NCBI GenBank assembly: GCA_036149055.1
Contig: JAYZQJ010000035.1
Coordinates: forward strand, 1 to 23,521
Direction: 5' to 3'
Source of the DNA: Myxococcota bacterium
GTDB lineage: Bacteria; Myxococcota_A; Polyangia; Polyangiales; Sandaracinaceae
Length of the DNA: 23,521 nt
Within the stretch, counting starts at the first letter, position 1. Every line of letters begins with the position of its first letter. Positions 19,812 to 23,521 of this stretch are shown in pieces. A program made the translations under genes and the position numbers. A model generated the notes under the pieces. It worked only from the letters and a program-made list of their open reading frames with translations. It ran no database searches and had not been told where the DNA came from.

Positions 19812-20729
19812 ATGGTCGACAAGGTCGAATCGATCTGGATGGACGGCGAGCTCATCCCCTGGGACGACGCCAACGTGCACGTGCTCACGCACACGCTGCA
19901 TTACGGGCTCGGCGCGTTCGAAGGCATCCGCTGCTACGAGACGGAAGACGGCCGCAGCGCCATCTTCCGGCTCAGGGAGCACGTCCGCCGGCTCTTCGAG
20001 TCCGCGCACATCGTGACGCTCGACATCCCGTACACGCAGGATCAGATCGTCGACGCGTGCCTCGAGACGGTCCGCGCGAGCGGCCTCAAGAGCTGCTATC
20101 TGCGCCCGCTCGTGTTCCTCGGCTCCGGCGCGATGGGCCTCGGCGCGATGACCAACGCCACCCGCGTCGCGATCGTGGTCTGGAAGTGGGGCGCGTACCT
20201 CGGCGACGAGGGCATCCAGAAGGGCATCCGCGCCCGCGTCAGCTCCTTCACCCGCCCCGGCATCAACATGCAGATGGCCAAGGGCAAGGTCGTCGGCCAC
20301 TACGTGAACTCCATCCTCGCCAAGCGCGAGGCGCTCAAGACCGGCTTCGACGAGGCCATCCTGCTCGACGCGCAGGGCTACGTCAGCGAGGCGAGCGGCG
20401 AGAACATCTTCATGGTGCGCGACGGCAAGATCGTCACGCCGCCCATGGGCAGCTCGATCCTCGGCGGGATCACCCGGGACACGATGCTCCGCATCGTGCG
20501 CGACATGGGCATCGAGGTCACCGAGCGGCTGATGGCTCGCGACGAGCTCTACATCGCCGACGAGATCTTCATGTGCGGCACCGCCGCCGAGGTGACCCCG
20601 GTCCGCGAGATCGACGGCCGCACCATCGGCAAGGGCGAGCGCGGCGAGCTCACCAAGCGCGTGCAGGATCGCTACTTCCAGGTCGTGCGCGGCGTCGAGG
20701 CGCCCGAGGAGTGGCTCACCTACCTGTGA
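19812..20729 (+). CDS. ilvE: Branched-chain amino acid aminotransferase
   Basis: IWMDGELIPW, LHYGLGAFEGIRCY, YLRP, AKGKVVGHYVNS, EASGENIF, ILGGITRDT, ADEIFMCGTAAEVTPVREID. AGGAGGAG RBS. Confidence 0.98.
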   Translation: MVDKVESIWMDGELIPWDDANVHVLTHTLHYGLGAFEGIRCYETEDGRSAIFRLREHVRRLFESAHIVTLDIPYTQDQIVDACLETVRASGLKSCYLRPLVFLGSGAMGLGAMTNATRVAIVVWKWGAYLGDEGIQKGIRARVSSFTRPGINMQMAKGKVVGHYVNSILAKREALKTGFDEAILLDAQGYVSEASGENIFMVRDGKIVTPPMGSSILGGITRDTMLRIVRDMGIEVTERLMARDELYIADEIFMCGTAAEVTPVREIDGRTIGKGERGELTKRVQDRYFQVVRGVEAPEEWLTYL

Positions 20730-20760
20730 GCGCTTCCGGGCGGCCAGCCCCGAACGAGAG

Positions 20761-20795
20761 AGGGCGAGCTCTTCGGAGCTCGCCCTTCTTCGTTC
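20761..20795 (+). terminator. Intrinsic terminator after ilvE
   Basis: AGGGCGAGCTC-TTCG-GAGCTCGCCCT, a perfect 11-bp stem with a cUUCGg tetraloop, followed by TCTTCGTT. Confidence 0.85.
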
Positions 20796-20883
20796 TGGCA
20801 GCCTGATTGTGGCGCCCGGTCGTTCTCCGAGCGAAGAACGAGGTAGCCGCACGCGCCCTCCTCGGGTCCATCCCGCGGCAGCG

Positions 20884-21254
20884 GGCGGCCAGCGAGCGCG
20901 CAGCGCGAGCCGCAGGCCCCCCAGCGCCCCGTCGCTGGGGTCGCGCGCGAGCGGAGCGACGCGCGCGAAGTGGGTGGGGCCCCGCGGAAGAGGCGCAGCG
21001 AGGTTTGCGGACGGCGAAGCCCGGAGGGACATCCCGGAGCGAACATCCCGGAGCGAACATCCCGGAGCGAGCATCGTCGTGCCGCCGCCGTGGGGGCGGC
21101 TGCGGACGGCGGCGGACCCGCCCCTACCCAGCAAGGACAGGCGGCCAGCGAGCGCGAAGCGCGAGCGCGAGCCGCAGGGCCCCCAGCGCCCCGTCGCTGG
21201 GGTCGCGCGCGAGCGGAGCGACGCGCGCGGAGTGGGTTGGGGGGGCCCCGCGGA
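20884..21254. repeat. Two direct copies (20884-20988 and 21140-21254) of a ~105-115-bp palindrome-containing repeat
   Basis: Both read ggcggccagcgagcgcgNagcgcgag..ccgcagg..cccccagcgccccgtcgctggggtcgcgcgcgagcggagcgacgcgcgcgNagtgggt..ggggccccgcgga. Internal stem ccccagcg/cgctgggg. Confidence 0.9.
21029..21070. repeat. 14-bp tandem repeat (ACATCCCGGAGCGA)x3
   Basis: Three perfect copies at 21029, 21043 and 21057, with partial copies on both sides. Confidence 0.95.
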
Positions 21255-21357
21255 GCCGGCTGACCCGTCGCTGCGGAGGGTGCGGAGCACCCGCAGCGGG
21301 GACGGGTCTGACGGCGCAGCGGGGGGGAGGGGTCGAACCCGACCCCGCCCAAAGAAC

Positions 21358-22071
21358 TCAGTCCATCACCACTTCCTTGTGGAACAGGAAGCGCTGGCAG
21401 GCCTGGCACTGGTAGAAGTCGTCGCCCCGGATGATCTGGTTGTAGAGCTGCGGGGAGATGCTCATTCGGCAGCCCTGGCAGACGCCGTCCGCCGCCTCGA
21501 CCACCGCGGGGTGGATCTTCGGGCGGATGCGCTCGTAGCGGCGGTAGACCGGCTTGGGGACCTTCGGCACGTACTCGGCGCGCCCCTTGGTCTTCTCCTC
21601 CAGCTCGGCCTTCAGCCCCGCGAGCTTCTCCTCGCTACCAGCCTCCGCCTCGGCCAGACCCTTCTGCTGCTCCTCGAGCTCCTTGAGCGGCTCGTCGAGC
21701 ACGCTGCGGGTCTGCTCGATCACGCCTTGCAGCCGGCCCTTCTCTTCCTCCGCGTCGCGGATGGCGCGGCGGATGGCCTCGAGCTCTCGCTCCGCGGCCT
21801 GCGCCTCGCGCATGTTCCGCGCCTTCGCGCTCTTCGCCTTGCTCTTGGCGAGCAGGTCGTTGCGCGAGCGCAGCTCCTCTTCCTGCTGCGCGAGTAGACG
21901 CTCGGCCTCTTCGAGCTGCCCACGCTGTCCGTGGACGAGCGCGTCGAGCGCCTTCACGGCGGCGCGTCGCTCCTCGAGCTCCTCGGGGATGCCCTGGAGC
22001 TGCTCTTCCACGTCGCGCGCGGTCGCGTCGATCTCGGCGAGTCGAACCAGTGCCCTCAGCTTGTCGTGCAC
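21358..22071 (-). CDS. Coiled-coil + C4-type zinc ribbon protein (CT398/HP0958-like family)
   Basis: ORF 21358..22155; likely GTG start 22071 with AGGAGG 9 nt upstream. LVRLAEID, a long coiled coil, YERIR, CQGCRMSISPQ...CQACQRFL. Confidence 0.92.
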   Translation of the reverse strand: MHDKLRALVRLAEIDATARDVEEQLQGIPEELEERRAAVKALDALVHGQRGQLEEAERLLAQQEEELRSRNDLLAKSKAKSAKARNMREAQAAERELEAIRRAIRDAEEEKGRLQGVIEQTRSVLDEPLKELEEQQKGLAEAEAGSEEKLAGLKAELEEKTKGRAEYVPKVPKPVYRRYERIRPKIHPAVVEAADGVCQGCRMSISPQLYNQIIRGDDFYQCQACQRFLFHKEVVMD

Positions 22072-22182
22072 GCCCTCGGTCCTCCTGTCGGCCCCCGCTA
22101 CGTTCGTGGATGACGGGGACGGTGACGCGACCGAGTTGGATTCGATGTGGCTCACCGACCGATGCCCTCCACGGACTGCGCG

Positions 22183-22211
22183 TGACTAACGCGCATCGGG
22201 ACTCCATGCAA
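22183..22211 (-). promoter_or_regulatory. Candidate sigma70-type promoter for the zinc-ribbon gene
   Basis: Minus strand TTGCAT-N17-TAGTCA. The -10 is imperfect. Confidence 0.4.
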
Positions 22212-22369
22212 GCCCCGCCGGGTTGCTCGGTGGTGGGGGGTGGGTTCGACGGAGGGGTTCTCGGTGGCGATTTCTTCGTTCGTTCGTGGAGCTCGACGAG
22301 TGGGCTCGGCCGCTTGGATTGGGATGGGGTGCGGATCCGGAGCGCCTGTTTTCGCTCGGCGTGGAACCG

Positions 22370-22429
22370 GCGGCAGCGGGGGCGGCAGCGGCAGCGGTAG
22401 CGGGGGCGGCAGCGGTAGCGGGGGCGGCA
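22370..22429. repeat. Array of ten GCGGNN hexamers (GCGGCA/GCGGTA/GCGGGG)
   Basis: gcggca gcgggg gcggca gcggca gcggta gcgggg gcggca gcggta gcgggg gcggca. Confidence 0.9.
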
Positions 22430-22434
22430 GTTGT

Positions 22435-22456
22435 TCGGGGACGATCCTATTCGTTC
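22435..22456. repeat. Upstream copy of the 22-bp motif TCGGGGACGATCCYATTCGTTC
   Basis: tcggggacgatcctattcgttc, 21/22 identical to 23291-23312. Confidence 0.9.
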
Positions 22457-22665
22457 GCCAAACTCGGCGGAGGTGCGACGGCTGCGGGCTGCGAATACGT
22501 CTGCGGGACCGACCCGTCCGGCCTAGCTATTTCTCCTCGCCTCCCACCTCTCCTCTCCCTGGATACCGCCAACACAACGAGCGCGTCGGGCTCGGTGTCG
22601 GTGTCCTACTACGCATCCCGCGTTGCGATCTATAGGCCGGCCGCGGACTCGATTGAAGGGGGCGC

Positions 22666-22824
22666 CTCGTCGGTGAGCCCCACCGTGTACGCCGGTGCTC
22701 GGGCGTGTAAAGGGGGCCTGCGGCCCCGGCTGCGCGCTGCGCGCTCGCCGGCTTCGGCGCCTGCGGCGCCTCGCCCTCGCCCCGCCCTGCGCGCCGGCGG
22801 GGGGGGGTGGGCGTCACCGACGAG
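22666..22824. repeat. 159-bp inverted-repeat-bounded, hairpin-rich element upstream of the four-helix-bundle gene
   Basis: ctcgtcggtgagccccacc (22666-22684) pairs 17/19 with ggtgggcgtcaccgacgag (22806-22824). Internal stems ggggcc-tgc-ggcccc and ggcgcc-tgc-ggcgcc. Confidence 0.75.
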
Positions 22825-22871
22825 TCGCGCGACGATCGCGCGCCAGGCTGCGGTGACTCGGAGAACCGCTC

Positions 22872-23195
22872 ATGCAGCTCAGGATCTATCGCGACGCCGT
22901 CGCCATGGTCACCGAGGTCGGACCGCTCGTTCAGGCGATCCGCCGCGACGACACCGACCACGCGCGCCAGCTCCGCAAGGCCGCCAAGTCCGTGCCGCTC
23001 AACATCGCGGAGGGCACCTACTCGCGGGGGCGCAAGCGGCAGGTCAGCTACCACGTCGCTCTCGGGTCCGCGAACGAGGTGGTCGCTTGCCTCGAGGTGG
23101 CCGTCGCGGACGGCATCCTCGTCTCGGTCGACCCCGCCATCCTCGACCGGCTCGACAAGATCATCGCGACGCTCGTGAAGCTCACCGACAAGTGA
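22872..23195 (+). CDS. Four helix bundle protein (23S rRNA intervening-sequence protein family, structurally related to DGR Avd)
   Basis: 107 aa with the family signature LRIYRDA...RQLRKAAKSVPLNIAEG...YHVALGSANEVVACLEVA..G..LDKIIATLVKL. GGAG RBS 8 nt upstream of the ATG; host-like codon usage. Confidence 0.92.
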   Translation: MQLRIYRDAVAMVTEVGPLVQAIRRDDTDHARQLRKAAKSVPLNIAEGTYSRGRKRQVSYHVALGSANEVVACLEVAVADGILVSVDPAILDRLDKIIATLVKLTDK

Positions 23196-23204
23196 GCCTG
23201 ACCT

Positions 23205-23246
23205 GACCCCGGGGCGCGGCCCTCTCGTGGGCTGCGCCTCGGGGTC
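23205..23246 (+). other. 18-bp stem-loop just after the four-helix-bundle stop, without a U-tract
   Basis: GACCCCGGGGCGCGGCCC-tctcgt-GGGCTGCGCCTCGGGGTC: 16 Watson-Crick + 2 G-U pairs on the + strand. Confidence 0.8.
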
Positions 23247-23289
23247 CCAACCCACCTCACTGCTTCGGGGCGCGAGACCGCTCCGGATG

Positions 23290-23374
23290 GTCGGGGACGA
23301 TCCCATTCGTTCATCGAGCTCGGGAGCGGGCGGCCTTCGGATGTGAGTCGGGGACGATCCCATCGGTCATCGAG
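23290..23374. repeat. Two downstream copies of the GTCGGGGACGATCCCAT..TCATCGAG motif (23290-23318, 23347-23374)
   Basis: gtcggggacgatcccattcgttcatcgag vs gtcggggacgatcccatcggtcatcgag; both have cggatg just upstream. Confidence 0.9.
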
Positions 23375-23387
23375 ACCGGCCGCGGGC

Positions 23388-23521
23388 GCGGCAGCGGAGG
23401 CGGCAGCGGAGGAGGCGGCAGCGGAGGCGGCAGCGGAGGCGGCAGCGGAGGCGGCAGCGGAGGCGGCAGCGGAGGCGGCAGCGGAGGCGGCAGCGGAGGC
23501 GGCAGCGGAGGCGGCAGCGGA
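23388..23521. repeat. 12-bp tandem repeat (GCGGCAGCGGAG)n, about 11 units, running off the window
   Basis: Perfect units except one extra GAG at 23412-23414; the last unit is cut by the window edge. Confidence 0.97.

Follow-up and report, generated by a model that had tools for sequence, protein, structure and literature searches.

A multicopy cassette with an Avd-like four-helix gene and a fold-back leader in a Myxococcota genome

Among the described systems closest to the locus studied here are the intervening sequences (IVS) of 23S rRNA that carry an open reading frame (ORF) for an S23p/IVP protein, as in Coxiella and Leptospira, and whose mode of spread is unresolved according to the accessible part of PMC4990558. 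We have analysed a stretch of 23,521 nt, hereafter called the window, which is an entire contig (C35) of a Myxococcota genome of 9.9 Mb and 73% G+C (GenBank GCA_036149055.1, contig JAYZQJ010000035.1) and which holds, near its right end, a solo gene for a four-helix-bundle protein of the same family together with a fold-back leader and several kinds of repeats. The source genome is labelled G000 in what follows, its congener G001, and further G numbers denote other relatives.

Other described systems share single features with this locus. The leading regions of conjugative plasmids contain Frpo/ssi elements, in which a stem-loop of the template strand rebuilds the -35 and -10 boxes of a promoter (PMC9849209 and PMC11541004, in their accessible parts). 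In TIRtrons, inward-facing repeats with a GGGGAC head stand on either side of an HUH/Tyr gene and also occur dispersed, singly, as dimers or in clusters, some of these terminal inverted repeats (TIRs) being devoid of the GGGGWSAS head, as stated in the portion of PMC3733652 that is available. Four-helix genes of the PF05635 type have also been noted inside cas loci (PMC3936711, available in part).

The results of our analysis indicate that the four-helix gene of the window is part of a discrete, multicopy unit that shifts position and has no transposase of its own. Its conserved partner is the upstream fold-back leader, whose structure is better conserved than its sequence and which a first-pass annotation of this DNA, centred on the repeats, had passed over.

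The four-helix gene and its fold-back leader

The protein of 107 aa scores above the cut-offs of both PF05635 (51.1 bits, cut-off 33.8) and TIGR02436 (49.8 bits, cut-off 24). Its structure model consists of four helices (pLDDT 97), and Foldseek matches it to Xcc0516 (2gsc), the nearest solved structure, with a TM score of 0.85, to BT_0352 with 0.81 and to Avd of diversity-generating retroelements (DGRs; 4dwl) with 0.70. To our knowledge, structures of PF05635 proteins have been solved and a function is known nowhere outside DGRs. The source genome has 10 members of the family, namely four of subfamily A, to which the window copy belongs (97-98% identical), five of subfamily B, which have about 35% identity to A, and a single outlier. 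These paralogues are under purifying selection, with pN/pS values of 0.07 for the four A copies and 0.16 for the five B copies.

Much of what the first-pass annotation had described at this locus stands: the gene lies opposite to, and divergent from, a C4 zinc-ribbon gene on the minus strand (PF02591); arrays of GCGGNN hexamers occur on both sides, in direct orientation with a 22-bp motif; an element bounded by inverted repeats precedes the gene and an 18-bp hairpin follows it; the relatedness to Avd is recovered as a fold match; and neither rRNA (no Rfam match in 20500-23521) nor reverse transcriptase (RT), integrase or transposase (none among the 17 main window ORFs scanned against Pfam) is present. 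The features of the gene and its leader are the following.

22668..22822, no strand assigned: fold-back leader of 155 nt, a long imperfect stem topped by three small hairpins (folding)
22706..22711, minus (antisense) strand: -35-like hexamer TTTACA of the far arm (arm test)
22682..22689, minus strand: -10-like hexamer of the far arm, TACACG (spacer 16) or CACGGT (spacer 18), bordering a mismatch bubble and opposite a G run
22777..22782, plus strand: -35 position of the near arm, decayed here to TCGCCC (TTGACA in the paralogues on C156 and C164)
22826..22842, no strand assigned: small hairpin between the leader and GGAGA (fold)
22860-22864, upstream of the four-helix ORF: Shine-Dalgarno-like GGAGA
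22872..23195, plus strand: four-helix-bundle ORF (PF05635/TIGR02436, S23p/Avd-like), 107 aa, pI 9.25 (profiles, model, Foldseek)
23205..23246, plus strand: 18-bp hairpin 3' of the stop codon, without a U-tract, at which a terminator scan made no call; paralogues have a hairpin at a like position

Full-length matches to the profiles of the A and B leaders, which have a common architecture and differ in stem sequence, are found in the source genome solely before four-helix genes; three further matches are cut by contig ends and two are partial and without a gene. Folded as DNA, the antisense strand reaches a z value of -2.4 in the window copy compared with -4.4 in the paralogue on C156, and the sense-strand fold of a longer stretch is not significant (z -1.3 as DNA, -0.7 as RNA). 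The leader of the window copy is probably weakened; the TTGACA form of the near arm is present, besides the two paralogues, in an RNA-library contig of another copy.

The structure recurs among relatives. We used an arm-pairing test anchored on the -35-like hexamers, with a score of at least 11 as a pass, and found that 61 of 99 upstream regions of relatives pass. Among the controls, none of the 99 shuffles passes; 2 of 82 downstream regions do, as do 4 of 600 ordinary upstream regions of the source genome. The two arms differ in a consistent way: A at -11 plus T at -7 is present on 54 of the 61 far arms, read on the antisense strand, and on none of the 61 near arms, which are G-rich at this place. 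Among 14 non-redundant leaders, the -10 score is at least 3 on 13 far arms and at most 2 on all 14 near arms, and with anchoring on structure only the first unpaired base is an A in 9 of 13 cases. The near arm also keeps TTGAC, the stem ends just short of the -11 A, and where the spacer is 15-16 nt long, a 1-nt bulge on the opposite (template) arm offsets it. Most leader-bearing genes fall into one group of the tree (28 of 32 rows; support 87/84), with six changes.

At the level of the family, this geometry is that of an Frpo-type stem-loop, in which the template strand would fold back and so rebuild -35 and -10. Three candidate Frpo sequences from the accessible supplement of PMC11541004, themselves untested candidates, have by eye the same layout of -35, 15 nt and TAnnnT. 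A search of a plasmid collection with the leader returned 9 weak partial matches, none of them at 80% coverage.

The same geometry can be read in another way, in which the cassette is mobile but the leader is an ordinary outward promoter on double-stranded DNA, serving the upstream arrays or a head-to-head partner, and the stem is folded read-through RNA. The -35/-10 pair does lie on one continuous antisense strand, four-helix genes do occur as head-to-head and tail-to-tail pairs, and an RNA-library contig covers a leader and gene start. We consider this explanation unlikely, given that it accounts neither for the TTGAC of the near arm, nor for the stop of the stem before the -11 A, nor for the bulge that offsets the 15-16-nt spacers. 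Public runs, considered here as contigs from 4 DNA and 4 RNA runs out of 20 with matches (depth sums give no copy number), add a weak hint against a strong outward transcript: RNA contigs from four runs of two studies leave 22180-22303 uncovered, and DNA contigs run through it. The gap in RNA coverage over the four-helix gene itself in two runs carries no weight.

Copy number and change of place

A sequence search detected four-helix matches in 19 of 31 genomes, at 1-30 per genome, and found none in the other 12, near-complete ones among them; a profile search raises the top count per genome to 31-32. An alignment-based search matched 37 of 151 genomes of the class at E 1e-15, and a scan of a genome collection returned only 2 relatives, the nearest named one being an uncultured Myxococcales genome. 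The subfamilies expand genome by genome.

Change of place is documented by filled and empty sites. Mapping 20 loci of G001 on G000 gave two clean pairs, with 1,935 against 120 nt and 2,220 against 94 nt (G001 filled), and mapping three loci of G000 on G001 gave one, with about 3,600 against 43 nt (G000 filled). No target-site duplication is visible by eye in these three pairs, whose flanks are only 74-88% identical. With respect to insertion sequences and miniature inverted-repeat transposable elements, the unit has no transposase, its flanks vary from copy to copy and fixed terminal inverted repeats are absent.

Spread of the gene could also be imagined without a mobile cassette, if the protein served the host as a nucleic-acid-binding factor switched on by single-stranded DNA (from damage, uptake or transfer) and its copies were propagated by gene conversion among repeat-rich hot spots. 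The strong purifying selection would suit such a role, as would the make-up of the four-helix loci, which are mosaics of several unrelated repeat families, and the fact that no mobilising enzyme tracks the cassette. Copy number nevertheless ranges from 0 to about 30 among relatives, with no copy found in 12 of the 31 genomes, the expansions are specific to individual genomes, several copies are broken in the complete genome G003, and the two commonest repeat families of the source genome are not enriched at four-helix genes (1 of 15 and 0 of 15 clusters), so that we regard a host-serving gene as quite unlikely.

Several arrangements of the copies deserve mention. In G003, four-helix copies at L059, L061, L063 and L065 are frameshifted, the leader being recognisable in three of them. 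Genes of two subfamilies are often placed tail to tail around a shared hairpin (G004, G026, G028, G070 and G089; for example L003, L006 and L015), and head-to-head pairs are seen in G001, G007 and G169. The 3.6-kb insert of G000 that is absent from G001 (C128; L100:1372-4976) also contains an ORF for a hydrophobic protein of 234 aa beside a TIR dimer, as well as several other repeat families. Four-helix loci often coincide with breaks of synteny between G000 and G001 (L076, L081, L083, L098, L099 and the right end of the window), a coincidence noted at four-helix loci alone.

Flanking repeats, Y1/HUH transposases and surroundings of the window copy

The repeats around the gene are arranged on one strand in the order array, motif, gene, motif, motif, array. 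The contig stops inside the right-hand array, so that the right boundary of the unit is out of view.

22370..22429, plus strand: left hexamer array of 10 GCGGNN units (repeat scan)
22435..22456, plus strand: first copy of the 22-bp motif, hereafter M1, a single TIR arm (sequence match)
22527..22553, plus strand: M2, a dispersed, pyrimidine-rich motif (genome-wide count)
23291..23312, plus strand: second copy of M1, the same TIR arm (sequence match)
23348..23368, plus strand: third copy of M1, degenerate, with one base missing and one changed (sequence match)
23388..23521, plus strand: right hexamer/12-mer array, cut by the contig end (repeat scan)

Arrays with a period of 6 or 12 flank 45 of 47 leader-bearing rows compared with 19 of 400 random windows, the count being restricted to rows with long enough flanks (82 rows scored, a few of them duplicated; the window copy was left out on account of its short right flank). 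Among the 30 rows with arrays on both sides, 16 have direct arrays, 6 inverted ones and 8 different units. Arrays thus belong to the design of the cassette but are no fixed ends, contrary to the role that the first-pass annotation had given them.

The same annotation had taken M1, in three copies, as the other kind of end of a discrete mobile unit. The third copy is degenerate, as listed above, and the part of the proposal that holds is the unit itself, with its many copies, changes of position and lack of a transposase, not its delimitation by M1 and direct arrays. In the source genome, the 19-nt core of M1, with two mismatches allowed, matches at 49 sites, which fall into 33 loci. It is found within 1 kb of 8 of the 10 four-helix genes, for which about 0.1 sites would be expected; no four-helix gene lies that close to 25 of the 33 loci, and of these 12 are near contig ends. 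Like the arrays, M1 is enriched even with respect to other repeat clusters, occurring in 8 of 15 clusters with four-helix genes and in 20 of 936 others (p 1e-9). An enriched motif and a gene that is not fixed in place are the opposite of the syntenic, repeat-free gene amid evenly scattered repeats that would speak against a mobile unit.

M1 itself belongs to a different system. It is one arm of a palindrome of about 65 nt, found whole at several sites, and inward-facing M1 arms bracket an HUH/Tyr ORF of 297 aa in the source genome (C209:58106-58999; HLH, YHHRNP). Cognate arms, with a genome-specific tail, flank 8 of 14 homologous Y1 loci, in G000, G001, G007, G008, G016 and G017. All 13 aligned members match NF047646, the G000 protein with a score below its cut-off, and for the C-terminal helix-turn-helix that subclass 2.1 transposases have there is a match to HTH_31 under the cut-off (E 0.17). 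The head of M1, GGGGACGA, fits six of the eight places of GGGGWSAS and differs in the last two. A 10-nt core of M1 occurs in four-helix flanks of only three of 19 genomes, namely G000, G001 (5 of 26) and G017 (1 of 2), and is absent from those examined in the other 16, including G003 (0 of 13) and G004 (0 of 14). M1 is the terminal repeat of a TIRtron-like Y1/HUH (TIRYT) transposase and therefore a genus-level passenger or accessory of the cassette, a reassignment to a known type of system that removes a false lead.

M1 and the direct arrays would still be the cassette's own ends if an enzyme acting in trans, here the TIRYT protein, recognised them and excised what lies between. Besides the enrichment of M1, such a model can draw on the intact cognate HUH enzyme in the genome, on the GGGGAC-type repeat near one edge of all three filled sites and on the cassette of G017, which bears that genome's own TIR variant. 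It is nonetheless highly improbable. M1 stands on both sides in the window copy only, among the 10 copies of the source genome; its arms face inward around the transposase gene and are direct here; G003 and G004 have about 10 and 30 copies of the cassette with no M1 in the 13 and 14 flanks examined, their Y1 genes being distant; and the predicted excision or circle junctions between 22435 and 23291 or 23348 did not appear in clean form among the contigs of the public runs. Joints such as 22466-23291 were rejected as excision products: they have other letters between their sides and fit tandem copies of the motif at other loci.

Y1-type genes are present in G000 and in all 5 of the other genomes tested, and their flanking repeats are common to the cassette in only some of six genomes examined closely. 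The PF01797 profile misses the cognate C209 TIRYT gene and the Y1 genes of G003. Seven related RAYT-like genes of G000 (on C132, C4, C83, C116, C198, C143 and C29) were discarded as a source of M1, as they carry a different repeat; most are flanked by a repeat of their own. The genome has, in addition, two Y1 genes of another type at the contig ends of C191 and C144, and a second TIRYT-like gene with its own TIR on C63. A rolling-circle route of the IS91 kind was likewise dismissed, PF04986 (Y2) being found in none of G000, G001, G003 and G004. The second motif, M2, has 70 sites and is present in 8 of 15 four-helix repeat clusters and in 43 of 936 others; no cognate enzyme was found for it. 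M2 contains CCTCC runs resembling an anti-Shine-Dalgarno sequence and often closes a hexamer array.

The window copy is flanked by housekeeping genes (no search aimed at relaxases was made), and its neighbour outside the unit is the host gene on the left.

21358..22071, minus strand: host C4 zinc-ribbon gene (PF02591; Pfam)

RNA contigs from two studies end at 22166-22168, on the zinc-ribbon side. Just above this stop, at 22166-22212, the minus strand has a -35/-10-like pair, kept in relatives as judged by eye, and the zinc-ribbon gene likely has its own promoter near there. In G004 and G014 the zinc-ribbon gene is followed by a compact layout of a tRNA and then rpoD, without a four-helix gene, and tRNA-rpoD is the right-hand neighbour in G003 and G013 too. 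Such a neighbour was rejected for G000, where both genes are inside C167 next to another neighbour; since the link is broken, the empty site of the window copy is undefinable, and the search for empty sites that had been proposed succeeded at the three other loci described above. G001 has 889 nt assembled beside the zinc-ribbon gene, with other repeats and no four-helix gene, before its contig ends.

This spot shows further variation. In G003 an unrelated four-helix gene is placed beyond the tRNA and ahead of rpoD (L034:2470-2960); near-perfect inverted repeats, about 60 bp long and made of hexamer-like words, enclose it, and it has no fold-back leader. In G013 (L035) the gap between zinc-ribbon gene and tRNA is filled by two small genes that by eye resemble a HicA/HicB toxin-antitoxin pair, which suggests that the spot attracts insertions. 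Elsewhere in the window, a palindromic repeat that is very abundant in the genome (about 150-190 overlapping BLAST hits; a 20-mer from it has 112 sites) and shows no enrichment at four-helix genes occurs twice between ilvE and the zinc-ribbon gene (20828-21365), in a region where strains differ, and positions 1-122 hold two tandem copies of a 50-nt repeat with 102 sites genome-wide, which co-occurs with the palindromic one.

Proposed mechanism and comparison with known systems

Taken together, we tentatively favour, at somewhat less than an even chance, a transposase-free cassette that is copied through single-stranded DNA, whose antisense fold acts as promoter or primer site and whose Avd-like ring aids re-entry. 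This reading builds on the multicopy state, the movement between genomes, the selection and the leader geometry, and it would add to them promoter activity, a single-stranded form, binding and a route of integration. The cassette would comprise hexamer arrays, fold-back leader, Avd-like gene and 3' hairpin. On a single antisense strand, the far arm would provide -35 and -10 as the non-template strand, the folded leader being duplex to about -12 and unpaired from -11, and the host sigma-70 RNA polymerase would read toward the gene, yielding mRNA, a primer for the second strand, or both, in the manner of F-plasmid Frpo. Frpo reportedly also primes DNA synthesis, as the title of a 1997 article by Masai and Arai has it. 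The gene-side arm has no -10, so the four-helix gene would be mostly silent on double-stranded DNA. If real, a fold-back promoter would thus date the action of the protein to the phase in which the DNA of the cassette is single-stranded.

Given its Avd fold and basic charge, the protein might assemble into a ring and bind the single-stranded DNA or the RNA of the cassette, perhaps at the arrays, and might help the cassette to recombine into repeat-rich intergenic sites without target duplication. The leading candidates for a source of single strands would be resident Y1/HUH transposases acting in trans; M1 is the TIR of one such enzyme and rides along in this genus. Because all three filled sites have an M1-type repeat near one edge, an enzyme of the C209 type may act on the cassette within the genus.

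Single strands could also arise by reverse transcription, with the Avd-like ring recruiting a host RT in trans and the leader folding on first-strand (antisense) cDNA. The fold is common to DGR Avd, as noted above, the cDNA of the mRNA would have the polarity required by a fold-back promoter, and an RT is present in 12 of 12 leader-bearing genomes tested. RTs are common anyway, however (24 of 31 genomes); G000 and G001 have one each, neither adjoining an assembled copy; a transcript from this promoter would be without the far arm, so that read-through RNA would be required; and G027 (92% complete) has 9 copies of a leaderless clade and no RT was found in it. We therefore judge this route very unlikely. 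The only RT found in G000 looks retron-like from its sequence (C177:9781-14649); a B-type leader, truncated by the contig end, is found about 4 kb away, perhaps by chance.

A number of observations weigh against copying through a single-stranded form with a fold-back promoter. Clean pairs of filled and empty sites were obtained at only 3 of 23 loci, the others being at contig ends or synteny breaks, and the public runs, as contigs only, contain no clean excision or circle joint. By eye, 5 of the 61 passing leaders seem to be false, and G001 contributes about 20 that are near-copies. The spacer pairs better with its own arm (mean 8.3) than with the arms of other leaders (1.0 +/- 3.1), which speaks for the fold-back, but this comparison is partly circular because leaders were chosen by arm pairing, and 66 of the 182 cross pairs score as high as the weakest own pair. 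Other four-helix clades have spread without the leader (G026, G022, G027), with 5 of 27 distant upstream regions passing the test, and a looser genome-wide scan gave 43 matches, of which 4 are at four-helix genes. As to the promoter, the -10 boxes are weak, mostly CAnnnT; by inspection no A+T-rich UP element is visible, G+C-rich hairpins preceding the -35; a consensus promoter scan made no call at the window leader, whose near-arm -35 is broken; and the far-arm -35/-10 pair would equally be an outward-facing promoter on double-stranded DNA. The single RNA-library contig of another copy that spans the entire leader and the gene start fits folded RNA or DNA carry-over. Finally, Y1 and four-helix flanks have no repeats of at least 18 nt in common in G003, G004, G014, G028 and G063 (10 Y1 loci).

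It is possible, though doubtful, that the cassette represents a distinct class of mobile element, with an Avd-like ring protein as its sole gene and a promoter confined to the single-stranded intermediate of the element. If so, the element would sense its own mobilised state and make a protein that protects and re-integrates it, the hexamer arrays would be binding and landing sites, and the missing mode of movement of ORF-bearing rRNA IVS would be supplied.

The accessible parts of PMC4679880, PMC8700078, PMC5524665 and PMC3936711 do not describe such a cassette, and the combination of the four-helix family with repeats or mobility and single-strand promoters was not found in the open full-text literature, subscription papers lying outside this search. 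With the 23S IVS the cassette has in common the PF05635 family, a selfish and patchily distributed character and a mode of movement unknown in both, as far as the available part of PMC4990558 goes. It differs in being located outside rRNA, next to a protein gene and with no Rfam match in the region scanned, and in being multicopy in intergenic DNA; moreover, no single stem encloses the ORF here, arrays and motifs being direct (inverted arrays in 6 of 30 two-sided rows), and a promoter-like fold-back leader and hexamer arrays are present. DGR Avd (4dwl, 8ube) resembles the protein in its four-helix fold (TM about 0.70, 12-14% identity) and in being basic (PMC10053308, in its accessible part), whereas the gene studied here is solo and multicopy, with no RT or template/variable repeats adjacent in the assembled flank. 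Likeness to TIRtrons covers M1 alone and not the cassette, as does the comparison with TnpA-REP subclass 2.1 (accessible part of PMC6006769), and a link of TIRs to four-helix genes is not reported in the available portion of PMC3733652. As in Frpo, a long stem-loop precedes the gene, the template strand folding back to carry -35 and -10 with a short spacer; unlike Frpo, the leader is chromosomal amid housekeeping genes, is tied to one gene family, has a weak -10 and no visible UP element, and is known here from sequence. The protein family, the IVS elements, Frpo promoters and TIRtrons are thus each known, and what appears to be new is their combination: single-strand promoters are established for conjugative plasmids, and their use by a multicopy cassette of the chromosome would be a novelty.

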